A stretch of 42,272 bases of DNA from a virus (taxonomy: Duplodnaviria; Heunggongvirae; Uroviricota; Caudoviricetes), in the IMG/VR virus record IMGVR_UViG_2529292726_000021. One strand, given 5' to 3'. A program made the position numbers and the translations under genes. Positions 1 through 42,272 of this stretch are shown here, one piece after another. Each line of letters begins with the position of its first letter. The stretch's first letter is position 1. The notes under the pieces were generated by a model. It was not told the DNA's origin. It saw only the letters and a program-made list of their open reading frames with translations, and ran no database searches.

Positions 1-1149
1 AAAGATATCGTTTACTTCCACAGCCTGTTCTGGCCTGCCATGCTGGAAGGCAGCAACTTCCGCAAGCCGACCAACCTGTTTGTTCATGGCTATGTGACGG
101 TGAACGGCGCGAAGATGTCCAAGTCTCGCGGCACCTTTATTAAAGCCAGCACCTGGCTGAATCATTTTGACGCCGACAGCCTGCGTTACTACTACACTGC
201 GAAACTCTCTTCGCGCATTGATGATATCGATCTCAATCTGGAAGATTTCGTTCAGCGTGTGAATGCCGATATCGTTAACAAAGTGGTTAACCTGGCCTCC
301 CGTAATGCAGGCTTTATCAACAAGCGTTTTGACGGCGTGCTGGCAAGCGAACTGGCTGACCCGCAACTGTACAAAACCTTTACTGATGCCGCTGAAGTGA
401 TTGGCGAAGCATGGGAAAGCCGCGAATTTGGCAAAGCTATCCGTGAAATCATGGCACTGGCTGACCTGGCTAACCGCTATGTTGATGAACAGGCTCCGTG
501 GGTGGTGGCGAAGCAGGAAGGACGCGATGCCGATCTGCAGGCGATTTGCTCTATGGGCATTAACCTGTTCCGCGTGCTGATGACGTACCTGAAACCGGTA
601 CTGCCGAAACTGACTGAACGTGCAGAAGCATTCCTGAATACAGAACTGACCTGGGATGGTATCCAGCAACCGCTGCTGGGCCATAAAGTGAATCCGTTCA
701 AGGCACTGTATAACCGTATCGATATGAAACAGGTGGAAGCACTGGTGGAAGCATCCAAAGAAGAAGTGAAAGCCACAGCTGCACCGGTAACTGGCCCACT
801 GGCTGACGACCCGATTCAGGAAACCATCACCTTTGACGACTTCGCCAAAGTTGACCTGCGTGTGGCGCTGATTGAAAACGCGGAGTTTGTCGAAGGTTCT
901 GACAAACTGCTGCGCCTGACGCTGGATCTCGGTGGTGAAAAACGTAATGTCTTCTCAGGCATTCGTTCCGCTTATCCAGATCCACAGGCACTGATTGGTC
1001 GTCACACCATTATGGTGGCTAACCTGGCACCGCGTAAAATGCGCTTCGGTATCTCCGAAGGCATGGTGATGGCTGCTGGCCCTGGCGGAAAAGATATCTT
1101 CCTGTTAAGCCCGGATGCTGGTGCTAAACCAGGCCACCAGGTTAAGTAA
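1..1149 (+). CDS. metG: methionyl-tRNA synthetase, C-terminal part (5' end outside window)
   Basis: Frame open from position 1 to TAA at 1147-1149; translation (KMSKSRGTF ... AKPGHQVK) recognised as enterobacterial MetG C-terminal region. Confidence 0.95.
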
Positions 1150-3440: not shown

Positions 3441-3580
3441 ACAGGGAAAAGGTTGCATCCCGCTACAGAAACGGCTGGGTTGCCTTCGGGGAACGGCTGG
3501 AGGTTTTCAGGGAAACGGTCGAGTTGCCTGTGTGGATTTCGGGAAAAGGCTCGATGCCGGTTCAGGAACGGTGGCGTACC
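3441..3580. repeat. iteron-like direct repeat array 1 (six ~21-23 bp imperfect units)
   Basis: Units GGGAAAAGGTTG, AGAAACGGCTGG, GGGGAACGGCTGG, GGGAAACGGTCG, GGGAAAAGGCTCG, GGAACGGTGGCG spaced about two helical turns apart. Confidence 0.6.
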
Positions 3581-3888
3581 GGTATAGCGAGAGGGAGAGT
3601 TGCGGCTACCCACCTGTAATGTGCGGGAAGAAGAGAGGCGCTCACGTGCAGGCGGACTTGCTTACCGCTGGATTCCCTCTGAATGCCAGCTACAGCGTAA
3701 TTGTGCCAGACAGCCAACGGGTCACAATCGATTTCAGTAGGTTTTCGGGGAGAGGATTATTCTGCCCCCCAGCCACTTTCGGCCACTAAATCAGAATAAT
3801 GTAAAAAGTGTACTCGGTACTGAACCTGAAAACTCACTGCCAAAACCACATTCACCGGAATAAAATCCTTTTTCGCCTGTGTGTTATT

Positions 3889-3927
3889 GCGATAATAACA
3901 CCATCAAGAAAACATGTTGTTTAAGGA
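3889..3927 (+). promoter_or_regulatory. early promoter/leader module, copy
   Basis: GCGATAATAACACCATC followed by AAGAAAACAtgTTGTTTAAGGA; ATG at 3935. Confidence 0.5.
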
Positions 3928-3934
3928 TTGCTTT

Positions 3935-4264
3935 ATGTTTGCAAATATCGACATCAACCAAATCAAGAAAATGACTCAAAAAGAGTTTGACCAGTTTTAT
4001 GAGCTGGAAGGTTGGTCTTCCACTCTGATTAATTCAAGATGGGTGCTGGAACTGATGACTCGTGATGACGCACCTGCTTTGATGATCAGCGACCTGGGTG
4101 AAGATGCTGACTTTATGGATATGAGCGAATTTTGTGTGGACACATACAACCGCAGCCAGAAGTACTACTTCACATGCGATAGCGAAAATGACGTGATTTC
4201 TAAGGTCTATCTTCACCTCGTCCAGCATTGGGACGTTCAGGACTTCCTTGAGATGTTCGCGTAA
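3935..4264 (+). CDS. hypothetical small acidic protein (109 aa)
   Basis: Start moved from track ATG 3914 (inside the motif) to ATG 3935, which has AAGGA 8 nt upstream. Confidence 0.55.
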   Translation: MFANIDINQIKKMTQKEFDQFYELEGWSSTLINSRWVLELMTRDDAPALMISDLGEDADFMDMSEFCVDTYNRSQKYYFTCDSENDVISKVYLHLVQHWDVQDFLEMFA

Positions 4265-4273
4265 ACTCAACCA

Positions 4274-4300
4274 AAGCCAGCATTGCTGGCTTAATTTCTC
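4274..4300 (+). terminator. candidate terminator
   Basis: AAGCCAGCA-tt-GCTGGCTT hairpin followed by AATTTCTCT. Confidence 0.45.
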
Positions 4301-4373
4301 TATAGCCGCAGGGAAGAACCTGCATATAGCTCATGCACCTGATCAATATGCTTTGTAGCCGTTTTCTTACTGG

Positions 4374-4412
4374 TATTATTTACGCCATTGAGAAAACAAG
4401 TTGTTTACGGAG
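4374..4412 (+). promoter_or_regulatory. early promoter/leader module, copy
   Basis: GAGAAAACAAGTTGTTTACGGAG immediately before ATG 4418. Confidence 0.5.
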
Positions 4413-4417
4413 TTGTG

Positions 4418-4729
4418 ATGAAAAAATCATTGGTTCTTGGTCTGGACAAAGACCAGAAGAGAAAAGAGAAGCCTGCGCTGGTTGCTCAATTAACTTTGCT
4501 GGACATCGTTGCCAATGGAACCTCTATTCGTCTGTTCCGTGAAACAGCGGTGTCTTTCGATAAAAACACCTTTACTCGTTATGTAATGAATGTTCGTCGC
4601 CAGCGTGGAAAAGGCTGGGTGGCATTTCAAAGAATGTGGCCGGAACATCAGCTCGAACTGGCTTTGATGGAAGTTAACCGCGTGGCCCAGCAAGAGATTC
4701 AGAGAGCATCAGTGATGGCAATAGCCTGA
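4418..4729 (+). CDS. hypothetical small basic protein (103 aa)
   Basis: Track ORF starts at a TTG inside the motif (4388); ATG at 4418 with ACGGAG upstream preferred. Confidence 0.55.
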   Translation: MKKSLVLGLDKDQKRKEKPALVAQLTLLDIVANGTSIRLFRETAVSFDKNTFTRYVMNVRRQRGKGWVAFQRMWPEHQLELALMEVNRVAQQEIQRASVMAIA

Positions 4730-4765
4730 TAATGTGCAAGTGGTAATTAGTCGACCGTACGACAG

Positions 4766-4792
4766 CCCCGCCATCCTTACGGGGTTTTTTTG
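4766..4792 (+). terminator. rho-independent terminator
   Basis: CCCCG-ccatcctta-CGGGG followed by TTTTTTT. Confidence 0.75.
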
Positions 4793-4855
4793 TATTGTAA
4801 GTACATACTTACGATCATAGAATATAAAAATAACCAATACACTACGGAGAGTGAA

Positions 4856-5251
4856 ATGACCGTTAAACGCGAAAAACTGACAGTTGATGTTTACTATGCC
4901 TCTGAAACCGCCGAAGGTAAGAATGTGGCAAAAATCACCGTTGTTACGTACAACACCGAAACTGGTGCCGAAGTACAGGCCAGTACGATCGTGCGTAAAT
5001 GTGATGCCTCCGGCGGCGAGTACGCGACTCAATACCAGTCCATTCTCGATGCAACTGACCCGCTGCTGCTGAAAATCGAGAACTACTTCCGCCAGGTTGA
5101 TGAAGAGGTGTTTGAAACCATGATGAATATGGTTAATTCCGTATTCACCTCCAGCCTGAACACCAGCACCACCTGGATTGGTCAGTACGGCCTGCGCATT
5201 ACCTCTGGCATTCCTGCTGACACCTTAATCCCTGAAAGCGTATTCGCTTAA
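4856..5251 (+). CDS. hypothetical protein (131 aa)
   Basis: ATG 4856 with ACGGAGAG upstream; track ORF start 4790 lies in the terminator region and is unlikely. Confidence 0.6.
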   Translation: MTVKREKLTVDVYYASETAEGKNVAKITVVTYNTETGAEVQASTIVRKCDASGGEYATQYQSILDATDPLLLKIENYFRQVDEEVFETMMNMVNSVFTSSLNTSTTWIGQYGLRITSGIPADTLIPESVFA

Positions 5252-5260
5252 TCCTCTTTA

Positions 5261-5288
5261 AATGGCGCGTAAACCGCGCCATTTTCTT
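5261..5288 (+). terminator. rho-independent terminator
   Basis: AATGGCGCG-taaa-CCGCGCCATT followed by TTTCTT. Confidence 0.75.
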
Positions 5289-5296
5289 ATACCCGA

Positions 5297-5359
5297 TAAC
5301 AATTTGTTTTCTACCTTATCTACACTGCGATAATTACAACAACAAGAAAACAAGAGGAA
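5297..5359 (+). promoter_or_regulatory. early promoter/leader module, copy
   Basis: ATAACAAtTTGTTTTCTACC (5297-5315), GATAAT (5329-5334), AAGAAAACAAGAGG (5345-5358); ATG 5365. Confidence 0.5.
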
Positions 5360-5364
5360 AGCAG

Positions 5365-5559
5365 ATGAAAACTATTACTCAAGTACAGCAAATCTGGGCG
5401 CAGCTAGCAAATGAGCCTGTGGATAACAATCAGCAGCTTGAGCGTGCATTTCACCATTTTGAAGCCGGTGACAGCATCATTGACGTGTGGGTGTGGATCG
5501 ACGGGCTGTGTCCAGATATCACCGTTGCACAGTTGCAGGAGATGGGGCACGATGACTGA
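5365..5559 (+). CDS. hypothetical small protein (64 aa)
   Basis: ATG with AGAGGAAAG upstream. Confidence 0.5.
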   Translation: MKTITQVQQIWAQLANEPVDNNQQLERAFHHFEAGDSIIDVWVWIDGLCPDITVAQLQEMGHDD

Positions 5560-5637
5560 TCTCACCATTACCCCAAAAGCACAAAATGTATTCCTTGAAT
5601 CATGGCTGGATTTGCCGCATTAAGTGAGAGTATTACG

Positions 5638-5901
5638 ATGGCAAAATTGACCAGAGCGCAGGAGCATGACCTGCGACGCGCAATTTATGATCTTGAAAGG
5701 GGGATCGCGTATCTGCGACACCCAAAAACTGCGGTTTGCTATCGCCACGATTACCCTGCAACTACCACATCGGCATATTCATCGCACGACGGGAAGACAT
5801 CACTTTCCCCTGTTTGCATCGACTACGGCTCGAATATCGTCGGTCTTTATCATGCGCTAGAAACGTTGAAAGAGTTCGTTGCAGCACATCGAAAGCAATG
5901 A
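5638..5901 (+). CDS. hypothetical small protein (87 aa)
   Basis: Internal ATG 5638 preceded by GTGAGAG preferred over track start 5602, which lacks an SD; start uncertain. Confidence 0.45.
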   Translation: MAKLTRAQEHDLRRAIYDLERGIAYLRHPKTAVCYRHDYPATTTSAYSSHDGKTSLSPVCIDYGSNIVGLYHALETLKEFVAAHRKQ

Positions 5902-6030
5902 TATATAGGCTGCCAATGCTGGTGGCCTTAAATGACCATCCTGTTCCACGCAGGCTAAAAACACCAACCTCTTACCTCTAGGCAACCGACAAACCCACCT
6001 GTTCCCGTCCGGCTACCGCAACTTTCCACT

Positions 6031-6090
6031 TTGACGCCTTATTCGTACAACGATAATTAACACCAACAAGAAAACAATTTGTTATTTACG
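6031..6090 (+). promoter_or_regulatory. early promoter/leader module, copy with sigma70-like -35
   Basis: TTGACG (6031-6036), 17 bp, TAATTA within CGATAATTAACACCAAC, then AAGAAAACAAtTTGTTATTTACG (6068-6090); ATG 6105. Confidence 0.55.
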
Positions 6091-6104
6091 ATAAGGAATT
6101 AATC

Positions 6105-6587
6105 ATGAATTTTATCGCTACTGTAAACGCACCCGCACATGGCAATATCGCTGTAACGTTCTCTGACATTGAAAAACGAGTACTTGGTGCATGGCGCGAC
6201 AATGAGACGGTAGAACTGTCAGCACAAGAAAAATGCAATATTGCACGCGACATCATTGGCAATCGTCGTTACTCGCGGGTATTTGAGAAAGCGTATGTGG
6301 TAAATTCTGGATTCGGAACGTTCGTCTTTCCGGTGCGCTCCGGGCGATTCTGCCAGTCCAAGCTGATTGAGTTCGCTACGCAGATTTCTTTCTGGATTAA
6401 AACTCAATCGTCGTTCAAATTTTCCGACGATGAAGCAGTATCGCAGGGGATGCGGATCGCCAACAATGCGATTAAATGCAAAAACATTACGTATACCGCT
6501 GGCGTTGATACATGGAAACTGTTTTGCGCTAACTTTATGCTGAATGTATACGCAAGCAACCGCATCCACATCCTTGATGGCGTGTAA
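6105..6587 (+). CDS. hypothetical protein (160 aa)
   Basis: ATG with AAGGAA 7 nt upstream; no motif recognised. Confidence 0.6.
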   Translation: MNFIATVNAPAHGNIAVTFSDIEKRVLGAWRDNETVELSAQEKCNIARDIIGNRRYSRVFEKAYVVNSGFGTFVFPVRSGRFCQSKLIEFATQISFWIKTQSSFKFSDDEAVSQGMRIANNAIKCKNITYTAGVDTWKLFCANFMLNVYASNRIHILDGV

Positions 6588-6596
6588 CTGAGAAGA

Positions 6597-6618
6597 GGGC
6601 CAGAAACGGCCCTTTATC
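6597..6618 (+). terminator. candidate terminator
   Basis: GGGCC-agaaac-GGCCC followed by TTTATCT. Confidence 0.45.
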
Positions 6619-6636
6619 TATAGCCACCAGCTGCCG

Positions 6637-6761
6637 CAGGGAAATTTTCAGAAGCGGCGAGGAACGTATTCATGAGCCGACGGGGGAACGGCCAGGATTT
6701 TTTCGGGAAACGGCTGCATTCGCCTTTGTGTAGAAAAAACATCGGGAAGCTGGTGGAATCC
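6637..6761. repeat. iteron-like direct repeat array 2
   Basis: GGGGGAACGGCCAGG, GGGAAACGGCTGCATTCGCC, GGGAAGCTGGTGGAATCC share the GGRAAMGGYTG core of array 1. Confidence 0.55.
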
Positions 6762-6842
6762 AACCAGCGGTTGTCGGACAGGTGAGCGAGGAAAATTATG
6801 ATGACTTTCGTCGCCTGAGACATCCAGATTTCTTTCGTAGCG

Positions 6843-6897
6843 TAATCACATATGTGATTAAGTGGTGTGATTATGTGAAAAATCACGCGCACATAAT
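6843..6897. promoter_or_regulatory. cluster of palindromic operator-like sites
   Basis: Perfect 18-bp palindrome TAATCACATATGTGATTA (6843-6860) followed by further TGTGATTA / CACATAAT half-sites. Confidence 0.45.
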
Positions 6898-7134
6898 ACG
6901 CGAGCGGATACGGAGCAAAACAAAATGCCGATCCGCGCCGACAAATAAACGCGGATCATAAAGCAAGACTAAAAGCCAATAATTAACCATACTCTATAGC
7001 GCAATATAACGCGTTTTAAGCGCGTTAATGTGTTAAGTAATGGGTATATACTGGTAAGGATATAAAAGCTCGTCTGTGGCGTTATTTTGGCGCTTATTTT
7101 TATGTTGTTGGAGTGAGTTAAAGACAATAAAAAA

Positions 7135-8357: not shown

Positions 8358-8655
8358 GATTTTATTCCTTAGTATAAATATTAAAATTTAACTCAAGAAA
8401 GAAAGTGTTTTGCACTCGTTCCTGATGCGTTCAATTATCGATACGCGAAAAAAGATTGCAAGTGTTTTTTTTAAGTTTTTTTGCAGGGGTGAAAGTCCTA
8501 GAAATAAAAGTTAGATCGTCGAAGGTGTTCCCTAAATAAATAATAAATTCCGGCTTTTGACCTTATATATTTATACGGGGGAGAATTGAATGAGTGTTAA
8601 ACGAATGGCATGTAAAATAATAACCGGACTTAGCCGATTATTACCCTTATAGAAA

Positions 8656-9174
8656 TTAAAACGGAAGGATTCGTTCAACCCAATCGAAGAAAATAAGTAT
8701 TTTTCTACCGTCTTCCAACTTAAGTGTGACTAGACAGGCGTCAACGCCATCTGACGTTCCCTCAATTTCGCGACCGTCTGCCATGTAGACCCTTATAGAT
8801 TTGCCGTTTTGGTAAGCCTGACGACATATCTTAAAAAAGTCACGACGTGATGGCTGATTAACCATCTGTTCATTGTTTAGCGTTAGTCGACCTGTGAATG
8901 AAGTGTCAACCTCTTCTATGCCCGACTCAATTGTGCTAATGCGCTCAAGAGGGAGCCTTATACGATTTGTGTTGCTAAGCGGATCTGGTGTGAGGTTCAG
9001 CTTATTTCTTGCGCTCAATAGCCCGTAGACATACATGCAAAACACTTGGCCGTCTTCGAGAGTGACTCTTACAGGAAATTTTGCACTCCGCCAGAAGAGC
9101 AAGGTGCGCTCAGCATGTTCGTAGTCTCGCGGCCAGACTTCAGCCGGTATGCCGTAGGTGATGTCTTTAACCAT
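8656..9174 (-). CDS. hypothetical protein (172 aa) with internal repeat
   Basis: ATG with AAGG upstream; two related segments (VRVTLEDGQVFCMYVY and VTLKLEDGRKILIFFDWV). Confidence 0.55.
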   Translation of the reverse strand: MVKDITYGIPAEVWPRDYEHAERTLLFWRSAKFPVRVTLEDGQVFCMYVYGLLSARNKLNLTPDPLSNTNRIRLPLERISTIESGIEEVDTSFTGRLTLNNEQMVNQPSRRDFFKICRQAYQNGKSIRVYMADGREIEGTSDGVDACLVTLKLEDGRKILIFFDWVERILPF

Positions 9175-9276
9175 AGTCTACCTTTTTAAGTCTTTTTTGG
9201 TCATTATATACATCTCTATGATGCGTAGACAGACTAACCGTACATTCCACCAAAAATTGATTATGGAATAAGTTTC

Positions 9277-10077
9277 ATGAAGAATGGGGTGAATAAAAAA
9301 TACTCATTAGCATTGTTAATAGCGGCTTTACTATTAACAGGTTGTGATTCTGATGAAGAGCGAGCCATAGATCTAGTTGAAAAGGATATTCGCTCTACAC
9401 TGCTAGATCCTGATGCTGGTCGGTTCACGAATATGCGAGCTATTCAGTTAGGTGAAAATAGCTATTCATATATGGTATGTGGAGAGGTGAATGGTAAAAA
9501 CGTCTTGAACGCCTATACAGGTGCGACCGCATTCAATGCACACATCTTTGATGTTCGTGAACGTAACCCGATTGTATTCGTTGCAATGGATAAAAGTACC
9601 AACTCGGCAAGAGAACGATTACGTTTTGAACGCCAAAATCTAGCATGTAAAGAAAATGGTGTGAAACTTTATCTGGAAAACGAATCTAAAATCAGGAAGG
9701 AAAAAGAGAAAATAGATGATTTAAAAAAAACTCCATTAGGTCAGGCTGTGTTTGATGCTGCAAGTGATTCGACATATGTGAGTAGAGAGTTGGGCGAATC
9801 GAGAGGTGTTAGTGAAGTGTATGCAAGAGAAAATGATAAATATGCTCTTGTTAGCGTCACCAATTATGACACTCCTGACTTTTACAAATTTAGGAAAAAA
9901 GACAACGGTGAACTAGAACCTGTTAGGGGACTGTCTTATACCGGCTATCCATTCGCGGTTACACTGTGCCATTCTGAACAAACAGATTATGACAAATGTA
10001 TAACAGAAGAAGAAATCAAGTTGCTTCGAGACGAAAAGAATAAGCTCGATGATTTTGTCGTGCCACCAGAAGAATAA
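9277..10077 (+). CDS. putative lipoprotein (266 aa)
   Basis: N-terminus MKNGVNKKYSLALLIAALLLTGC has a signal peptide and lipobox (LTGC) with Cys at residue 23; AT-rich. Confidence 0.65.
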   Translation: MKNGVNKKYSLALLIAALLLTGCDSDEERAIDLVEKDIRSTLLDPDAGRFTNMRAIQLGENSYSYMVCGEVNGKNVLNAYTGATAFNAHIFDVRERNPIVFVAMDKSTNSARERLRFERQNLACKENGVKLYLENESKIRKEKEKIDDLKKTPLGQAVFDAASDSTYVSRELGESRGVSEVYARENDKYALVSVTNYDTPDFYKFRKKDNGELEPVRGLSYTGYPFAVTLCHSEQTDYDKCITEEEIKLLRDEKNKLDDFVVPPEE

Positions 10078-10137
10078 CATATACAAAATATTTAATTGCT
10101 GTTAATATTTAATCGTTCAGACATAGGGAAAGTCCGA

Positions 10138-10171
10138 ACCCTCGACAAATCTTTCTGATATTGTCGAGGGT
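10138..10171. terminator. hairpin between convergent genes
   Basis: ACCCTCGACAA-atctttctgata-TTGTCGAGGGT between the lipoprotein stop (10077) and the minus-strand gene stop (10190). Confidence 0.5.
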
Positions 10172-10189
10172 ATGCTTCCAAGTGATGAG

Positions 10190-10543
10190 CTACTTATACC
10201 CTAATTCTTTACAGCTTTCTTCAAAAACCTCTTTAGGTAGGATATTTAGATCTACAATAGTGTTGCTGTTCTTGGTTAACACGTCATTGTAAGGAATTTG
10301 TACCCATCTGTAACCTGTATACCCACCATATGAGTTAGTCGCATTTAGTTTGAAACAATATGTATTGCTACCTTCAACGTGATCTGGGAATTTGTATTTA
10401 GCTGCATCCGGGGCCAGTAATTGTTTTTCTATAATATTTTTAATGTAATCTTGCTGAACGGGCGTTAAAGGTTTGGCTACTGTATTTCCTATATAGAATG
10501 CCAAGAGTGCCATAGAAAAAAATTGAATTTTTTTAGACTTCAT
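10190..10543 (-). CDS. putative secreted small protein (117 aa)
   Basis: From ATG 10543 the N-terminus MKSKKIQFFSMALLAFYIGNTVA is a typical signal peptide; the track start at 10564 is a TTG without SD. Confidence 0.55.
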   Translation of the reverse strand: MKSKKIQFFSMALLAFYIGNTVAKPLTPVQQDYIKNIIEKQLLAPDAAKYKFPDHVEGSNTYCFKLNATNSYGGYTGYRWVQIPYNDVLTKNSNTIVDLNILPKEVFEESCKELGYK

Positions 10544-10571
10544 CTTTTTAACCGTCTTTGACAATGAGAGT

Positions 10572-11147
10572 TTATGAGCGTTTGTTGAGCAGATCTACAA
10601 TCAGCTTTTGAGGTGTATTTTCCTCTTTTGTCTTAGGTAATCCATTCTGAGGTAGCGTCGATAGTCTGTTCTTATCTCCTCTAGGTAACTCAAGCCTTTT
10701 CTTGATCTGCACAATAAGTTCCCATAGACTGTCTTCGTTCTCAACCTTTATAGAGTAGCCTACGCCACAATATGAATCACTTTTTAAGCGATTGTGAATT
10801 TTGAACGTATTGAAGTTTGAGCTTAACTGAATATATCCTGGGGTAATACCATCTATACTTTCGATCACAGGAAGTATTTCTTTTATCTGGAAAGGGAAAA
10901 TGACCAATGAATAATCATCTCGTCTTTCCTCATTGTCTGGTGAAATTAAATAAATGTAGTAAGGGTTGTTTTTTGAATAAGATTCTCGTAATGCTGAACT
11001 CTTTCCGAAGTAGAAACCTTTAGCGTGAATTTTATCTTTCGTTTCTTTCCCCCGTTGTATCTGAATGTTATTTTCGCTAAGTGTCCCATTTGATACATAT
11101 GAAGCTTTATCCAATATCGTGTGAAGTTGTGTATTTGAAAGAGCCAT
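10572..11147 (-). CDS. hypothetical protein (191 aa)
   Basis: ATG with AAGGGA 8 nt upstream; no motif recognised. Confidence 0.6.
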   Translation of the reverse strand: MALSNTQLHTILDKASYVSNGTLSENNIQIQRGKETKDKIHAKGFYFGKSSALRESYSKNNPYYIYLISPDNEERRDDYSLVIFPFQIKEILPVIESIDGITPGYIQLSSNFNTFKIHNRLKSDSYCGVGYSIKVENEDSLWELIVQIKKRLELPRGDKNRLSTLPQNGLPKTKEENTPQKLIVDLLNKRS

Positions 11148-11291
11148 TAGCTATCCCTTCGACCAAACTCAGCGATGAAGCCTACAAATATCATTCAGCC
11201 AATCAAGAATTTTTTTCAGCCGGAGGTGTGCACTTCAAAAAATGTGATGAATGTCACATGCAGGTGCTCTCATACACCTGCATGTAGACTA

Positions 11292-11858
11292 TTAATCATT
11301 CAATAATCTATATTTTCTTTTGATTAAATCTTCACCTTTTTTGGTGAACACAAAACCAAATTGCGATTTTTTGTTCAGCCTAAGGACTCTGTTATCCAAC
11401 GCATCGGTTGATGGAATCAATGTTTGATCATCTATCCAATTTAGTAGCGTAAGAAAGTTCAGCAGCCTCAACGTTGTTGTGCGAAGCTCTTTCGATATAT
11501 TTTCAATGCTGGCAATTCGTCTTTCTTTTTTCTCAGGTAGTACAGATAATTGTTCTTGAGGTTTCGTGGATAGATAATCAATTTCGTTTGCAGCATCGAA
11601 TGATATGTGTGGCGTTATTTTGCTAAAAAAGCCTTTCGCTGACTCACTTGATAATAAACCAGACCTATTCATATCGTTTGTTATTCTGTACAGGAGTGGA
11701 CTGTGTTTCATTTCAGGATAACGTTGATAAAAGTTAAGCAATTCAAAAGCAGCATTAGCGCCAACAAGAAAATCAGAAGGATCGCTGACTTTCCAGAAAG
11801 AATGATTTTTCTTAGCGCCAGTGGTGTCAACAAATGATAATTCTTTTAACCAACTCAT
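11292..11858 (-). CDS. hypothetical protein (188 aa)
   Basis: Start moved to ATG 11858 (AAGGAG 7 nt upstream); SD and start lie inside a 10-bp-stem inverted repeat (11859-11890). Confidence 0.55.
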   Translation of the reverse strand: MSWLKELSFVDTTGAKKNHSFWKVSDPSDFLVGANAAFELLNFYQRYPEMKHSPLLYRITNDMNRSGLLSSESAKGFFSKITPHISFDAANEIDYLSTKPQEQLSVLPEKKERRIASIENISKELRTTTLRLLNFLTLLNWIDDQTLIPSTDALDNRVLRLNKKSQFGFVFTKKGEDLIKRKYRLLND

Positions 11859-11923
11859 GATGTGCTCCTTTCTAACAAGTGAGCACATCATAGAATTAGT
11901 AGATAGGGGGTAAATATAAAATG

Positions 11924-12202
11924 TTACGGCAACCTGCTCAGTATTTCCTCTAAATCTTTTTTTGTCATATTGGAGTTTTCATAGATGCGCATGATTTTCT
12001 CACGCGTCTTAGCGGAAACCCCAACGGCAGATGTGACTTTGTCAAATTCAGCCATAGTCATCGTCTCCAGAATGGCATTGATAACTTCAGCCTTAGACAT
12101 CTTGATTTTTTTCTCTTTGAGTTTTATTTGGAATTTTCCAAGTTTTTCATTGGCCTTATCAGACAATGCCACTTGGCAATAAGTTGTTTTCTTTTCGCTC
12201 AT
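11924..12202 (-). CDS. hypothetical small Lys-rich protein (92 aa), possibly DNA-binding
   Basis: ATG 2 nt after the helicase stop (translational coupling); 5' coding region contains AAGAAAACAACTTATTG, resembling the early motif. Confidence 0.5.
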   Translation of the reverse strand: MSEKKTTYCQVALSDKANEKLGKFQIKLKEKKIKMSKAEVINAILETMTMAEFDKVTSAVGVSAKTREKIMRIYENSNMTKKDLEEILSRLP

Positions 12203-34755: not shown

Positions 34756-34772
34756 TCAAGGATTTTTTGGAC

Positions 34773-37700
34773 ATGGAACAGTTCAAGAAGAAAAAATTAC
34801 CGCTTCTTATTGCCGGTGCTGGTGGCAAGAAAAGTAAAAGCTCCAGCCGTACCCCGGTTGAAGCTGATGATACTGTCAATTCTCGTGCTATGGCAGCCAT
34901 CCTCGACCTTCTTGGCGAGGGGGTTATCGGTGGCCTGGTAAATGGCGCAAAGTCGATCTTCATCGACGATTTACCGATCTTGAATGAAGATGGCTCTTCC
35001 AACTTCAGCGGTATTACATGGGATTTTCGTGACGGCTCACAAGACCAGACGCCAATGGCTGGTTTTGATTTTGTTGAAACGCCTAAGTCCGTAAATATTC
35101 AGCTTAAAAAAACACACGACGTTACGGTTTCAATCGATAACGATGAAGCTGATCGCGTTCGTGTCATCATGAAATTCCCCTCTTTACGTAGCGTTGATAA
35201 AAGCTCTGGCGATACAAATGGCACTACGGTGAAGTACAAATTCCAGATCGCCAACGCAGACGCAACATTTTCTGATGTAGTGGCAGAAGGTGAGAAAAGC
35301 GTTGATATCACGCTAACGGCAAAGAAAACCGGCGTGTATTACCGTAGCTATGAGCTGAAACTGCCTAAGCCTGGTCGTGCATACAAGGTTAGGGTGATTC
35401 GTCTTACAGATGATAATAGTAGCCAGTACCTCTACAACGACACATGGGTTGATTCCATCGGTGAGATTGTCGACACGCCAATGAACTACCCTAACTCTGC
35501 TCTTGTTGGCTTGAAGGTCAATTCAGAGCAGTTTGGTAGCACAATGCCTTCCCGTTCGTATTTGGTGCGCGGTATCAAAATCCGAGTACCGTCAAACTAC
35601 AACGAATACACCAATACTTATGTCGGCGTATGGGACGGTACTTTTAAGCTGTTGTCTTCTTCAAACCCTGCGTGGATTCTCTACGATTTGCTTACCAATA
35701 CTCGGTATGGTCTTGGGCAATTTGTGTCGGAATCCATGATTGACCTCGGCCAGCTCTACCAGATTGGTCGATATTGTGACGAAGAGGTCGATGATGGCTT
35801 TGGGGGTAAAGAGAAACGCTTTGCAATCAATACGCAGATCACCAGTCGACAAGACGCATACCGATTAATTCAGGATATTGCCGGTGCATTCCGCGGCATG
35901 GTGTTTTGGGCTGGTGGCATGGTTAACATCATGCAGGATAGCCCATCAGATCCGGTAATGATGTTTACCAACTCCAACGTCAAAGATGGACTGTTTACCT
36001 ATAAAGGTTCTGCGCGTAAAGATCGCCCATCCGTTGCGCTCGTAACCTACAACAACAAGGAGGACGGTTATAAGCAAAATATCGAGTACGTTGAAGATCA
36101 GGACGCAATGCGCCGTTATGGTGAGCGTAAAACAGAAGTCGTAGCATTTGGATGTACAAGCCGAGGCCAGGCTCACCGAGTTGGTTTGTGGCTTTTGTAT
36201 ACCGCCAGAATGGAGTCGGATGTAATTACATTTACTGCCGGCTTAGACGCCTCATTTCTGATGCCTGGTGAAACCGTTCTGATTCAGAACAAATATCGTG
36301 CAGGTAAACGTAACTCCGGTCGAATTGTGGAGTTTACCAAAAACAGCATCACTCTCGATGCGCCTGTGTCGTTAGCTAAAAGCGGCAGCTTTATTCGGAT
36401 ATTGAATCAGGAAGGCAAAATCGTTGAACGCGATGTTCTTGAAACTGGCGAAAACATAACAAAGGTTACGTTTTCAAAAGCCCTGTCGTCAGCGGAAACG
36501 CCTGTTTTGAACGGTGTCTGGACAATTACAGAACCAGATCTCGAACCTATGCGCGTTCGCATCGTTAACATCGCACAGGGGGAAACGCCGGGTAGCTTTG
36601 ACATCACCGCTGTTGAGAACAATCCGTCTAAATATGAGGCAATCGACAATGGTGCAACGCTGATCCCGCAGAATACGACGGTATTGGACCCAACTTACTC
36701 CAAGCCATCTAATCTGCAAATCACTGAAGGGACTTATCTCTCAAGCCCGGGCAACCTGTCAGTAAAACTGACTGCAACATGGGAAGGGAAATCTCCAGAG
36801 TATTGGATCAGTTGGCGACGTTCTGATGAAAACAATGTATCGAACTGGCAATCGGCGCGTGTAACCGAAGAGCAATACGAAATCGTTAATGTCGCGGAGA
36901 ATGGACGCTACGACTTCCAGCTGTATGCGGTTTCATTCAACGGTAAAAAAACAGAGATTATCAGTACTGTTTATCAGGTGTTGGGCACAATGACACCGCC
37001 TGATGCCCCAACGTCATTAACGGCCGTTGGAGACTATCGTAATGTGATACTGAATTGGGTTAATCCAGATTCGGTAGACCTTGATCACATTAATGTTTAC
37101 GCATCCCAGACCAACAATCTGGATACGGCGAAACTGATCGCAGAGTCTGCAAGCACCACCTTTACACATGCTGGTCTTGGGGATAGCGAAACGTGGTATT
37201 ACTGGGTTCGAGCATCGAACAAGCGAGGTATGTTAAGTCCTCCGAACTCAAACTTGGGTACAGAGGCGACAACTCGCGATGTACTGTCGTTCCTGACTGG
37301 CAAAATTACATCTTCCGAGCTTGGTCAGGCTCTGCTTGAGGACATCAACAGCAAAGTCTCTCAAGAAGCAGTTGACGAGTTAAATGAGCATATCAACCAG
37401 AGCGTCGAATCTTTAGAGGGGGCGGTAAACGACGTTAAGGAAGATATAGCTGAATTAGATAAGCAGTTCAGCGATAACCTCGCGGGTTTTGAAATAAAAT
37501 TCAACGAGCGTAGCGATGCTTTGGAGAACGCACAAACCGAGCTTAAAGGTGAGGTTTCGGCAACGATCGACAAGGTCAATGAAGCGTTTGAAAAAATTGA
37601 TGCTACTGATGCTGCAATTGTTGAAATCGAAAACACCGTATCTGAACACGATAAAGCTCTCGCTAATACAGTCGAGGCAATAAAGGCTGCAAGAGACGAA

Positions 37701-39497
37701 GCGGCGGCTCTTATTGCTAAGGAAAGCGAGGCTCGTGTTGAAGGTGATGCCGCAAACGCTAAACAACTGGAAGTGTTGCAGTCGACGGTAGAGGAAAGTT
37801 CCGCAGCCGTTGAAGAAATGAAAAAGACGGTTGCAGAGGTCGATCGTGCCAGTGCAGAACTGACTACGAACATTGAGGCGTTAGCTAAAACAAATATTGA
37901 CCTGGCTCTTCGTCAAGATGAAGACCAGCACAAGCAGATGGTCAATAACGCGAAGATCGCAACAACACAGAAAACCTTTGCTGATGATATGTCCGCAATG
38001 GCCACGAAGGTTGAGGAAATTCGCGTAGAAATTGGCGAAGACATTAAGGCCAGTATTCTGGAAGAGTCCACCGCTCGTGCCGATGGCGATGAAGCGTTGG
38101 CAAAGCGTGTCACTCAGCTGCAATCTAAGTTTGAAGGAGATATCAGCGCGGCGATTAGTACAGAGCAGGAGGCTCGTACATCTGCCGATGAAGCTCTGAC
38201 GACACAAATCACTCAGCTTGAGTCGAAAGTAAGCAACGATATCGTCGCAGCTATTAAGGAAGAGCAAGAAGCCCGAGCAACGGAAGATTCGGCTCTGGCA
38301 AGCCAGATCACCCAACTTCAGGCAAAGGTTGATGATGATATTTCTGCTGCAATACGTAGTGAGCAGGAGGCCCGAGCAAGCGGGGACTCTGCGTTAGCCA
38401 AACAAATAAACCAGCTTCAGTCAAAGGTTGACGGTGATATATCCGCTGCCATCACTCAGGAGCAGGAGGCCAGAGCAAGTGCTGACCAGGCGCTCTCACG
38501 AGAAATTAACAGCCTGCGAGCACAAACCGGAACTGATATTGCCGCAGCGGTTGCTGTAGAGACAAAAGCAAGGACTGATGCCGATAGTGCATTGTCTACC
38601 CAGATTACGTCTCTTACAGCAAAAGCTAATGATCTCAAGGCGTCTCTTGCCAGAGAAACAACGGCTCGTGCAGATGGTGATACCGCTTTAACAAAAGAGG
38701 TTTCAAGTTTAAAAGCACAGACAGCGAAAGATATTAGTGCGGCCGTTGCAGTTGAAACGCAGGCTCGAACTGATGCTGACTCGGCGTTGTCGTCTCAGAT
38801 CACCAAGCTGACCTCTCAATACAAAGAGGATATTAAAGCGGCTGTAGCAACCGAAACGAAAACGCGTACAGAGCAAGATGCTGCATTGGCGACTCAAATC
38901 ACAAACTTAGAGTCTCAAACGGCAGCCAACATTTCCGCGGCGGTCACAACTGAAACGAAAGCGAGAACGCAGGCAGATAATGCTCTGAGTGGGCGAATCG
39001 ATACTCTGAAAGCAGAGGTGAATGGAAATACCGCGACAATTCAACAGCAGGCAACAGCTATTGCTGATACCAACAAAAAAGTGTCAACCGCGTGGACGTT
39101 GAAAATGGAGACTTCAACGAGCGGAGGGCAGAAGTATGTTGCCGGTATTGCGCTTGGTATTGACACCACTGGGCTATCTCAGTTTTTGGTTCAGGCGGAC
39201 AGGTTTGGTTTGGTCAACTCTGTTAACGGGAAGATCACAACGCCATTTGTTATCGAAAACAGTATCGCCTATATGAATGGAGCGTATATCAAGGATGGCA
39301 CAATCACCAATGCAAAAGTAGGCGATCTGCAATCTACCAATTTTGTTAGCGGTAGATCTGGATGGCGATTCGGCAAAAATGGAACGCTTGAGATCAACGG
39401 TAATAGCGGCGGCAATGGGCGATTGGTTATAAATGGTCAGCGGATTGACGTTTATGACGATAACAACGTCTTACGAGTAAGAATTGGCCGTCTGTGA
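34773..39497 (+). CDS. central tail fibre / host specificity protein, lambda gpJ-like with coiled-coil repeat insertion
   Basis: N-terminal and central regions match remembered lambda J (e.g. FGCTSRGQAHRVGLWLL); C-terminus has the J-type segment KYVAGIALGIDTTGLSQFLV; about ten tandem 31-aa repeats in between. Confidence 0.85.
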   Translation: MEQFKKKKLPLLIAGAGGKKSKSSSRTPVEADDTVNSRAMAAILDLLGEGVIGGLVNGAKSIFIDDLPILNEDGSSNFSGITWDFRDGSQDQTPMAGFDFVETPKSVNIQLKKTHDVTVSIDNDEADRVRVIMKFPSLRSVDKSSGDTNGTTVKYKFQIANADATFSDVVAEGEKSVDITLTAKKTGVYYRSYELKLPKPGRAYKVRVIRLTDDNSSQYLYNDTWVDSIGEIVDTPMNYPNSALVGLKVNSEQFGSTMPSRSYLVRGIKIRVPSNYNEYTNTYVGVWDGTFKLLSSSNPAWILYDLLTNTRYGLGQFVSESMIDLGQLYQIGRYCDEEVDDGFGGKEKRFAINTQITSRQDAYRLIQDIAGAFRGMVFWAGGMVNIMQDSPSDPVMMFTNSNVKDGLFTYKGSARKDRPSVALVTYNNKEDGYKQNIEYVEDQDAMRRYGERKTEVVAFGCTSRGQAHRVGLWLLYTARMESDVITFTAGLDASFLMPGETVLIQNKYRAGKRNSGRIVEFTKNSITLDAPVSLAKSGSFIRILNQEGKIVERDVLETGENITKVTFSKALSSAETPVLNGVWTITEPDLEPMRVRIVNIAQGETPGSFDITAVENNPSKYEAIDNGATLIPQNTTVLDPTYSKPSNLQITEGTYLSSPGNLSVKLTATWEGKSPEYWISWRRSDENNVSNWQSARVTEEQYEIVNVAENGRYDFQLYAVSFNGKKTEIISTVYQVLGTMTPPDAPTSLTAVGDYRNVILNWVNPDSVDLDHINVYASQTNNLDTAKLIAESASTTFTHAGLGDSETWYYWVRASNKRGMLSPPNSNLGTEATTRDVLSFLTGKITSSELGQALLEDINSKVSQEAVDELNEHINQSVESLEGAVNDVKEDIAELDKQFSDNLAGFEIKFNERSDALENAQTELKGEVSATIDKVNEAFEKIDATDAAIVEIENTVSEHDKALANTVEAIKAARDEAAALIAKESEARVEGDAANAKQLEVLQSTVEESSAAVEEMKKTVAEVDRASAELTTNIEALAKTNIDLALRQDEDQHKQMVNNAKIATTQKTFADDMSAMATKVEEIRVEIGEDIKASILEESTARADGDEALAKRVTQLQSKFEGDISAAISTEQEARTSADEALTTQITQLESKVSNDIVAAIKEEQEARATEDSALASQITQLQAKVDDDISAAIRSEQEARASGDSALAKQINQLQSKVDGDISAAITQEQEARASADQALSREINSLRAQTGTDIAAAVAVETKARTDADSALSTQITSLTAKANDLKASLARETTARADGDTALTKEVSSLKAQTAKDISAAVAVETQARTDADSALSSQITKLTSQYKEDIKAAVATETKTRTEQDAALATQITNLESQTAANISAAVTTETKARTQADNALSGRIDTLKAEVNGNTATIQQQATAIADTNKKVSTAWTLKMETSTSGGQKYVAGIALGIDTTGLSQFLVQADRFGLVNSVNGKITTPFVIENSIAYMNGAYIKDGTITNAKVGDLQSTNFVSGRSGWRFGKNGTLEINGNSGGNGRLVINGQRIDVYDDNNVLRVRIGRL
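38067..39050 (+). repeat. tandem ~93-bp coding repeats inside the J-like gene
   Basis: Repeated peptide pattern AR(A/T)x(A/G)DxAL(A/S)xQI(T/N)QLQ(S/A)KVxxDI(S/A)AAIxxEQE, about ten copies. Confidence 0.7.
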
Positions 39498-39590
39498 TGG
39501 TGGAAAAAAAATTTTATATCGGTAAAAATAGGTAAGTATCTACTTAATGGCGGGCAAGGATAGCCCGCCAAATCAAGGAGCATATTCAAC

Positions 39591-41950
39591 ATGTGGTACA
39601 GGGAAGGTACTATCACATTTACACAGGGTAGCAATACTCTGGTTGGGGCAGGGACAGCCTGGAACGTAACAGCTAATGGTGTGTTGCCGGGGATGATCGT
39701 CATTGGCCCCGACAATAAGCTGTATGAGATCAAGCGCGTAACCAGTGATACGAACATTGTTCTCTCAGAACCTTATACCGGCGAAACTCAGTCTGAAGTT
39801 CCGTGCCGAATCATTACGACCTATGAAGGCGACTTAACACAGTTTAGCGCGCGCTTTACTGCGCTAATGTCGCGTATGTCGGCTGATTCCAAGTCCATAC
39901 GCAGTTGGTTGACTGCGCTGGATGAGGTGACAATCGAGCGTGAAGACGGTACAGAAGTGACCGTTAAGCCGCTAATGCAGATCGTCAACGAGCACAACGA
40001 AAACGTTGAGTGGTATAAAAATAACACTGACGCGATTGATGCTGCTGGCGACAAAGCTCGTGAGGCGGCGGCCAGTGCTGCCGCAGCAGCCAAAAGCGCC
40101 AATGCCGCTGGAGAAAAAGCCTCTCAAGCGTCTCAAAGTGCATCCGCTGCGGCATCCTCACAAAGTGCCGCAAGTGCGAGTGCAACTGCTGCGAAAAAAT
40201 CTGAAACGAATGCTGCAGCGTCACAAAAATCTGCAGCCACTTCTGCATCCACCGCGACCACGAAGGCGTCAGAAGCTGCCACCTCAGCCCGGGATGCGGC
40301 GGCCTCAAAAGAGGCAGCGAAATCATCAGAAACGAGCGCAGCCTCGAGCGCCAGTAATGCCGCTTCCTCGGCAACGGCGGCAGGAAATTCCGCGAAGGCG
40401 GCAAAAACGTCCGAGACGAACGCCAGGTCTTCTGAAACGGCAGCGGGACAGAGCGCCTCGGCTGCGGCAGGCTCAAAAACAGCGGCTGCGTCGTCTGCCA
40501 GTGCCGCGTCAACAAGTGCCGGGCAGGCCTCAGCCAGTGCCACCGCCGCCGGAAAATCGGCAGAAAGTGCCGCATCGTCTGCTTCAACTGCCACAACGAA
40601 GGCTGGCCAAGCCACTGAACAGGCCAGCGCAGCAGCGAGGTCTGCTTCCGCAGCGAAGACATCCGAAACGAACGCGAAAGCGTCGGAAACCCGTGCAGAA
40701 TCCTCAAAAACGGCAGCCGCATCGTCCGCCAGTTCGGCGGCGTCATCGGCATCATCGGCGTCTGCTTCAAAAGATGAGGCGACCAGACAGGCGTCAGCAG
40801 CGAAGGGCAGCGCCACGACGGCATCCACGAAAGCAACAGAGGCGGCAGGCAGTGCGACGGCAGCATCTCAGAGCAAAACTGCTGCTGAATCCGCTGCGAC
40901 CCGTGCGGAAGCTGCTGCTGATCGTGCTGAAGAGATTGCCGGTGCAGTTGCGATGGAAGACGCAAGCCTTACAACTAAAGGTGTTGTGAAACTTAGCAGT
41001 GCTGTCGACAGCACCAGTGAATCGCTGGCCGCAACGCCAAAAGCAGTTAAAGCAGCCAATGACAATGCGAATAGCAGGGTGCCATCTAACCGAAAAGTTA
41101 ACGGTAAAGCACTGACTGCGGATATCAAATTAACGCCGAAAGATATTGGTACTTTAAATTCAGTAACGATGTCTTTCTCTGGCGGGGCAGGGTGGTTCAA
41201 ACTGGCTACGGTTACCATGCCACAAGCGAGTTCCATCGTTTACATCGCATTGATTGGTGGCGCTGGTTACAACGTCGGCTCCCCACATCAGGCAGGCATT
41301 TCAGAACTGGTTCTACGAGCAGGCAATGGAAACCCCAAAGGGATTACAGGTGCTTTGTGGAAGCGTACAGCTGTCGGATTAACGAATTTCGCCTGGATCA
41401 ACACATCCGGCGATACATATGATATTTACGTTGAGATTGGCAATTATGCGACTCGTGTAAATATCCATTGGGATTGTACTGCAAATGCGACAGTTTCTAT
41501 TTATACATCGCCAACATATTCAGCGAGTAAGCCTTCCAGCGTTACCGATGGTGTTGTTTATACGATGTATAGCACACATCAGAAACCGACGCCGTTAGAT
41601 ATTGGAGCACTGCCAACAACCGGAGGAACAGTTTCAGGTCCGTTGTCTGTTACAGGTGGATTAACTGGTTCATTGAATGGTAATGCAAGTACAGCCACGA
41701 AATTGCAGACGGCAAGATCTATCGGTGGAGTTGTTTTCGACGGTTCTGCAAATATTAACCTTCCAGGTGTAAACACTACGGGTAATCAGAACACCACTGG
41801 TAATGCTGCAACTGCTACAAAACTTCAGACGGCAAGAACTATCGGCGGCGTGAGCTTTGATGGTACTGCGAATATTAATTTGCCAGGTGTTAATACGACT
41901 GGTAATCAGAACACAACGGGCAACGCGGCTACTGCTACGAAGTTGCAGAC
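39591..41950 (+). pseudogene. side tail fibre (Stf-like) gene truncated at the 3' end by IS2
   Basis: ATG with AAGGAG upstream; long Ala/Ser-rich repeat region with recurring KTSETNA units; TKLQTAR(S/T)IGGV...NTTGNQNTTGNAATA repeats; frame runs into the IS2 end at 41951. Confidence 0.75.
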
Positions 41951-42272
41951 TGGATTTGCCCCTATATTTCCAGACATCTGTTATCACTTAACCCATTACA
42001 AGCCCGCTGCCGCAGATATTCCCGTGGCGAGCGATAACCCAGCGCACTATGCGGATGCCATTCGTTATAATGCTCGAACGCCTCTGCAAGGTTCTTTGCT
42101 GCCGTTAACCCGTCTGGTTTGGGCATGATACTGATGTAGTCACGCTTTATCGTTTTCACGAAGCTCTCTGCTATTCCGTTACTCTCCGGACTCCGCACCG
42201 CCGTGTTCTTCGGTTCAAGTCCCAACATCCGGGCGAACTGGCGTGTTTCATTAGCCCGGTAGCATGAACCAT
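41951..42272 (-). mobile_element. IS2 (IS3 family), partial copy continuing beyond window
   Basis: Terminal sequence TGGATTTGCCCCTATATTTCCAGACATCTG matches remembered IS2 end; encodes the C-terminus of the IS2 orfB transposase. Confidence 0.85.
41962..42272 (-). CDS. insD: IS2 transposase orfB (InsD), C-terminal part
   Basis: Translation ...[35 protein letters not shown]...[31 protein letters not shown] matches remembered IS2 InsD C-terminus. Confidence 0.85.

Follow-up and report, generated by a model that had tools for sequence, protein, structure and literature searches.

A probable simple IS2 insertion truncates the tail fibre gene of an SSU5/Cyrano-like phage-plasmid of Escherichia coli

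In phage lambda, the side tail fibre (Stf) is found beside the central fibre J, and it can be knocked out by mutation in a phage that stays viable. The Stf gene of lambda PaPa was split by a frameshift into orf-401 and orf-314, and PaPa is viable; the split is visible in the lambda annotation. Here we describe the same concept in a viral DNA sequence of 42,272 nucleotides (IMG/VR record IMGVR_UViG_2529292726_000021; ‘the window’ hereafter means this whole stretch), in which a fibre gene that follows a J homologue runs into one end of the insertion sequence (IS) IS2. The locus differs from lambda in that the lambda lesion is a frameshift and not an IS, and in that the separate Tfa chaperone of lambda (orf-194) is absent here.

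Nearer to the window than lambda are Cyrano (the pLF82 phage-plasmid of E. coli LF82) and Salmonella phage SSU5, the closest named phages; Cyrano is inducible and makes virions (PMC9928086). The fibre genes of both (CYRAN_21 and SSU5_021) lie in the same place as the one in the window, directly after the J-like gene, their curated start codons coincide with the start of the window’s open reading frame (ORF), and the N-terminal and shaft regions are homologous. The window fibre matches that of Cyrano at 87% over 66% of the protein and that of SSU5 at 60% over 49%. Unlike the gene in the window, the fibre genes of SSU5 and Cyrano are intact. In SSU5 the fibre is followed by a ‘tail fiber adhesin’ gene of its own; the closest relatives of the window lack such a gene, and their fibre ends in a predicted Peptidase_S74 (S74) domain.

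The resemblance to lambda Stf is more restricted. An initial annotation of the window had called the ORF Stf-like, and this applies to the Ala/Ser-rich shaft and the collar segment that follows it (amino acids (aa) 202-496 against lambda 205-394, 54-72% local identity), the only part with similarity. The N-terminal ~150 aa are unlike lambda Stf, and the distal 595 aa that the window has lost show no similarity to the C-terminal part of lambda Stf (orf-314); they resemble P1 S and T4 gp34. The fibre is side-fibre-like by position, but it is a mosaic and not an Stf orthologue.

The element that carries the gene is also different from what had been supposed. Circular E. coli plasmids of ~100-126 kb are collinear with positions 1-41952 of the window at 92-99% identity. 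One of them, pECAZ162_2, is annotated with ParB-type partition, terminase, portal, major capsid, tape measure and tail-tip genes, a J-like ‘tail tip fiber’ gene and the fibre gene. Because of these partition genes, and because the nearest relatives are circular plasmids, the element is, as judged from its sequence, an extrachromosomal SSU5/Cyrano-like phage-plasmid of about 110 kb and not an integrated lambdoid prophage; the word ‘prophage’ in the initial annotation has to be given up. The setting is an SSU5-type late operon carried by a plasmid replicon: the fibre gene comes directly after the gene for the J-like central fibre, and only residues 1-786 of the fibre are left in the window.

To place the junction, we compared the end of the window with annotated IS2 copies. 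Positions 41951-42272 are identical, at 322 of 322 bases, to the last 322 nucleotides (nt) of IS2A of E. coli K-12, the mobile-element limits of which are annotated in NC_000913.3. The alignment puts the IS2 terminus (TGGATTTGCCCC...) exactly at 41951, and two further IS2 copies with unrelated flanks, one on an IncF plasmid and one on a Klebsiella plasmid, begin with the same first base of TGGATTTGCCCC. A boundary elsewhere is thereby contradicted, and the reading of the initial annotation, in which the ORF that starts at 39591 enters an IS2 end at 41951, is borne out to the base. The dinucleotide TG at 41951-41952 is common to IS2 and to the uninterrupted target, so homology to IS-free relatives extends to 41952. 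The right-end terminal inverted repeat of IS2 is present with its canonical sequence (TGGATTTGCCCCTATATTTCC..., ending CA-3′ on the donor strand); it occupies 41951-41991 by position, given a length of 41 nt for the right inverted repeat (PMC3299598).

The rest of the IS2 segment has the coding content expected of that end. The minus strand at 41965-42228 codes for the C-terminus of the IS2 transposase (Pfam rve_3, E = 1.5e-19; 88 C-terminal residues), a match by which the integrase core of the DDE transposase (OrfB/InsD) was found; only its C-terminal part is within the window. The 3′ part of the transposase gene insD/orfB covers 41962..42272 on the minus strand, opposite to fibre transcription, with its stop codon at 41962-41964; in K-12, the insD1 coding sequence likewise stops 11 nt short of the IS end. 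Because the transposase C-terminus lies on the minus strand, IS2 is inverted relative to the fibre gene, and the segment 41951..42272 corresponds to IS2 nt 1010-1331 on the minus strand, with the window stopping inside the element. Thousands of IS2 matches are annotated ‘IS3-like element IS2 family transposase’.

On the fibre side, the ORF extends over 39591..42128 on the plus strand and encodes 845 aa from an ATG start; a Shine-Dalgarno-like AAGGAG, read from the sequence, lies 10 nt upstream of this ATG at 39575..39580 on the same strand. The native 5′ part of the gene (39591..41950, plus strand) comprises codons 1-786 and two further nucleotides, as delimited by the ORF list, the relatives and phrog_3299. 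Codon 787 (ACT) spans the junction and all of codons 788-845 come from IS2, so that IS2 bases occur in 59 codons, the same 59 that had been called IS-derived. This tail (41951..42128, plus strand) consists of the last base of codon 787 and 58 junk codons antisense to insD, followed by TGA at 42126-42128.

Relatives without IS2 reveal what the gene looks like when uninterrupted. In plasmid p503046_111 (CP025888.1), which is identical to the window over 39591..41950 (zero differences), the fibre reads through the site (...GCAGAC followed by TGCGCGTACTATC...) to give 1383 aa; the fibre product of pECAZ162_2, which is 99.3% identical to the window over positions 35000-41952, has 1385 aa. These intact homologues, against which the initial annotation had proposed a comparison, carry 596-598 further codons, and 137 complete E. 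coli genomes run uninterrupted across the insertion site, matching at least 80% of a 600-nt probe centred on it. Because the relatives read on in frame, the fibre frame does not end naturally at the site. The distal part that is lost amounts to 596 residues, or 43% of the fibre.

The retained part of the fibre comprises the N-terminal anchor, the Ala/Ser-rich shaft (aa ~150-470), a globular segment (aa ~525-690), and two repeats with the start of a third; a Pfam search found no domain in these 786 aa. Specifically, Tandem Repeats Finder detects a repeat with a period of 120 nt and 2.2 copies at 41690..41950 (plus strand; score 317). In the protein the repeats are 40 aa long, carry the motif GNA[AS]TATKLQTAR...FDG.ANI and start at aa 697, 737 and 777; IS2 cuts the third after T787. 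The junction had been placed within tandem C-terminal repeats, and it does lie within the tandem block; the block, by contrast, is mid-protein in the intact 1383-aa fibre, in which GNA[AS]TATKLQTAR occurs again at aa 1031 and 1164.

About 187 nt of the fibre repeat block (window 41652-41838) are common, at 99.5% identity, to the fibre genes of many chromosomal E. coli prophages. The similarity to the prophages stops inside the repeat block, and two phage matches (H72 and H76) share the protein only to about aa 764. These patterns of similarity suggest that distal fibre modules are exchanged by recombination at the conserved repeat. It is also conceivable, though distinctly improbable, that the repeat linker lets the gene be repaired or re-specified by recombination with fibre genes of co-resident prophages.

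The modules beyond the insertion site can be identified in the IS-free relatives. There, Pfam finds a Gp34_trimer domain at aa 906-1006 (E = 6e-31) and a Peptidase_S74 domain (‘chaperone of endosialidase’, PF13884) at aa 1271-1327 (27.2 bits against a cut-off of 22); the latter contains an S-x-R-x-K motif read by eye at S1271-SRRYK1276 (SSRRYKKDIE...GLIAEEV). The S74 domain is absent from the truncated ORF of the window. Matches to solved structures by sequence and tblastn searches of phages relate the lost distal modules to the P1/Mu S and T4 gp34 fibres, and the intact relative matches phrog_3299 end to end (E = 0) along with many ‘tail fiber protein’ PHROGs. The fibre gene of the IS-free relative is followed by genes for an outer-membrane-protein-like product (phrog_557) and a membrane protein (phrog_425), then by cor and the holin, endolysin and Rz genes; in none of the closest IS-free relatives does a Tfa-type fibre-assembly gene lie downstream of the fibre. 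We predict that assembly of this fibre depends on the C-terminal Peptidase_S74 intramolecular chaperone, which lies in the lost part. The initial annotation had proposed that the native C-terminal region and a fibre assembly gene were displaced: the 596 residues are indeed cut off, but the IS-free relatives have no separate assembly gene to displace.

Taken together, these observations make it very probable that the junction arose by a simple IS2 insertion into codon 787 of a fibre gene of ~1383 codons in an SSU5/Cyrano-like phage-plasmid of E. coli. IS2, an IS3-family element of 1331 bp, would have moved by a copy-out/paste-in route; its transposition proceeds in two steps, through a figure-of-eight and then a minicircle, and its target has no strict consensus (PMC3299598). 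The element would have entered codon 787 with its transposase genes antisense to the fibre gene. The uninterrupted target in the relatives reads GCAGAC followed directly by TGCGCG, and 5-bp duplications are seen for IS2A in K-12 (ATTAC) and for IS2 in plasmid p503025_100 (ACCAG). We infer that the target-site duplication here is CAGAC, the predicted left copy of which is at 41946..41950 (no strand assigned); the second copy would fall past the window. A simple insertion predicts 1009 more nt of IS2 ending in ...GGGGGCCAGTCTA, then CAGAC, then TGCGCGTACTATCAATGG... and the ~1790 nt of the fibre gene that remain, so that a 3′ fragment of the gene should be present beyond IS2. We also considered whether IS2 had targeted a site that resembles its own left end (CAGACTG compared with the left-end TAGACTGG), and rejected this, as the flanks of four independent IS2 copies share nothing; the sample for this flank comparison was only these four copies, and apparent flank extensions among the top matches were judged to be chance.

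The insertion appears to be recent, because the window differs from the IS-free plasmid p503046_111 over positions 1-41952 by only 7 substitutions and no gaps (99.983% identity). This plasmid comes from the enterotoxigenic E. coli (ETEC) isolate 503046, which carries ST only together with CS6 (PMC6446980). The 7 differences lie at window positions 87, 2215, 3768, 14705, 18858, 19715 and 31934, and at five of the seven the window has C where the record has A; such an imbalance may stem from sequencing or consensus errors in either of the two assemblies rather than from divergence.

What the truncation does to the fibre can be predicted from its lost modules. Translation of the fibre would continue for 58 codons into IS2 and stop at 42126-42128, to give a product of 845 aa without the distal 596 residues. 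This product would lack the rest of the repeat linker, the trimerisation domain of T4-gp34/P1-S type, the distal (presumably receptor-binding) modules and the S74 chaperone. In S74-class fibres and spikes, such as the endosialidases and the L-shaped fibre of T5, removal of the domain prevents folding of the trimer. Because fibres of this class need the chaperone domain to trimerise, the truncated product is predicted to misfold instead of giving a shorter fibre, and we consider it a well-grounded expectation that functional fibres are not produced. Neither J nor any other virion gene of the window differs in length from its counterpart in the IS-free relative, and particles that adsorb through J alone may still form, by analogy with lambda PaPa, which lacks Stf. 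Promoter and terminator scans, which bear on polarity on cor and the lysis genes, found nothing above shuffled expectation.

Several points weigh against this reconstruction. The window stops 322 nt into IS2, so that the remainder of IS2, with its left inverted repeat and the orfA/orfB pair joined by a programmed frameshift, would lie beyond it, as would the other copy of the duplication and the distal end of the fibre gene. Searches for the exact left junction found no match in viral, genome or metagenome contigs, and the predicted right junction, searched with a variable spacer, had none in metagenome or genome contigs; the 845-aa chimeric protein had no exact-sequence match, and a junction-spanning megablast had no match in complete E. 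coli genomes and PLSDB plasmids. The allele thus has no independent confirmation, as the junctions and the chimeric protein are absent from the collections searched. The S74 assignment consists of one Pfam match above threshold and a motif read by eye, and the last 250 aa of the intact relative had no sequence match among solved structures; the loss of function itself is deduced.

An IS2 insertion in an orthologue of the fibre gene, visible in full, bears on how the single end in the window should be read. The fibre gene of p503025_100 (NZ_CP025894.1) carries a complete 1331-bp IS2 at codon 924 (5771-7101), flanked by the perfect duplication ACCAG and in the opposite orientation, and in-silico excision of this IS2 restores a 1385-aa ORF. 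The same codon-924 IS2 occurs in NZ_CP025883.1, NZ_CP025868.1 and NZ_CP025870.1, which are near-identical plasmids of ~100.47 kb. This is the same gene as in the window (96% nucleotide identity), in the same phage-plasmid family, hit by the same IS, and the strain numbers fall in the series of 503046. It is nevertheless a separate event, as it lies at codon 924 and not 787, has the reverse IS2 orientation, and leaves the site used in the window intact. A further insertion, of ~2.5 kb (~3549-6090) and including an IS66-family tnpB, interrupts the gene in p899037_3 (CP091407.1) at fibre nt ~3042 (codon ~1014), with an 8-bp flank overlap that is consistent with a target-site duplication. It resembles the others in being an independent IS disruption, the third, in the distal half of the same gene, and differs in IS family, site and strain (UK).

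An alternative to simple insertion is that the IS2 end marks a larger IS2-mediated rearrangement, such as a deletion beside the element, an inversion involving two copies of IS2, a composite transposon or a cointegrate with another replicon, in which case the 3′ part of the fibre gene would be lost or distant. A single visible IS2 end is compatible with this, as is the multi-copy nature of IS2 in E. coli, where complete genomes with any match have a median of 3 places per genome. Some relatives are within larger records of 126-240 kb, and signs of broader decay are seen in related phage-plasmids: p503025_100 is shorter than its relatives by ~10 kb, and its J gene, which lacks the N-terminus, carries a pseudogene annotation. 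We nonetheless consider a rearrangement unlikely, given that the only IS2 in an orthologue that is fully visible is a simple insertion with a perfect duplication, that the other 41,952 nt of the window are collinear with the IS-free relative without a gap, and that IS2 transposition defaults to simple insertion.

The junction could also be an assembly artefact, in which the end of a chimeric contig misjoins a multi-copy IS2 to the fibre gene. The window does stop within a multi-copy repeat, the junction is missing from the public collections searched, and it lies inside a repeated segment of the gene. Against this, the break coincides with the canonical IS2 terminus to the base, fibre and IS2 have no more than 2 nt (TG) in common where they meet and so offer no repeat to cause a misjoin, the collinear alignment assigns the fibre side unambiguously to repeat copy 3, and finished plasmids contain independent IS insertions in the same gene; an artefact is highly improbable. 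That the fibre instead ends naturally near the junction, as a short-fibre variant that IS2 merely adjoins, can practically be dismissed: fibre genes are mosaic around the repeat block, with several phage and prophage homologues sharing only the N-terminal part to about aa 764 and chromosomal prophage matches stopping inside the block, but in those homologues another distal module follows, a stop codon at this point is found in no relative, the frame stays open for ~596 codons more in the closest ones (97.9-100% identical), and the last 58 codons of the ORF in the window are IS2 sequence read in antisense.

A simple insertion, which we continue to favour, would make the window one of at least three independent insertions in the distal half of this gene: IS2 at codon 787 (window), IS2 at codon 924 and an IS66-family element at codon ~1014. 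One reading of this recurrence is that the fibre gene is a repeated IS target because loss of the fibre is selected and not merely tolerated, for example as part of a stepwise route from phage-plasmid to plain plasmid, or as escape from a cost or a defence trigger tied to expression of the fibre. We regard this as distinctly improbable; the truncated J gene of p503025_100 speaks for decay of the virion module as a whole and not for a loss aimed at the fibre. Gene inactivation can degrade phage-plasmids toward plasmids (PMC10879196), and the window fits that view as one more case of IS elements eroding the virion genes of a phage-plasmid. The event itself is an ordinary gene disruption, and the mildly interesting points are only that it would be very recent and that this gene has been interrupted on at least two other, independent occasions. 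For annotation, the practical value is that the 845-aa ORF is to be read as a disrupted tail-fibre pseudogene of an SSU5-like phage-plasmid, and not as a prophage Stf with a displaced tfa.

The comparison also bears on how the gene is annotated in a relative. The RefSeq/PGAP start of the fibre in pECAZ162_2 (4976) lies 384 nt (128 codons) downstream of an ATG at 4592, which is the start curated in SSU5 and Cyrano. This upstream ATG corresponds to window position 39591 with its AAGGAG, and the frame is open from there; the PGAP start is probably too short.

The central tail fibre/host-specificity protein J homologue that precedes the fibre gene is intact, with 1576 aa encoded at 34767..39497 on the plus strand (phrog_31 ‘central tail fiber J’, E = 0); it is named ‘phage tail tip fiber protein’ in pECAZ162_2 and ‘tail host specificity protein J’ in Cyrano. 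At residues ~1000-1400 it has a long stretch, rich in Ala, Glu and Gln, of degenerate peptide repeats (...EQEARASADEALTTQITQLESKV..DISAAI...), which Tandem Repeats Finder did not detect at the DNA level at a score threshold of 80.

Elsewhere in the window, scans for tRNAs and Rfam families over its whole length were empty. Two segments, 8653-11954 (~3.3 kb, the largest) and 1610-2393, lack a collinear megablast match to pECAZ162_2, whereas identity on either side is 92-98%; they have the appearance of variable cargo within the phage-plasmid backbone. By collinearity, positions 1-1149 (plus strand) lie inside a plasmid-borne gene for methionine--tRNA ligase (metG), and in pECAZ162_2 apbC and metG stand beside the phage genes; an aminoacyl-tRNA synthetase gene is noteworthy as cargo of a phage-plasmid.

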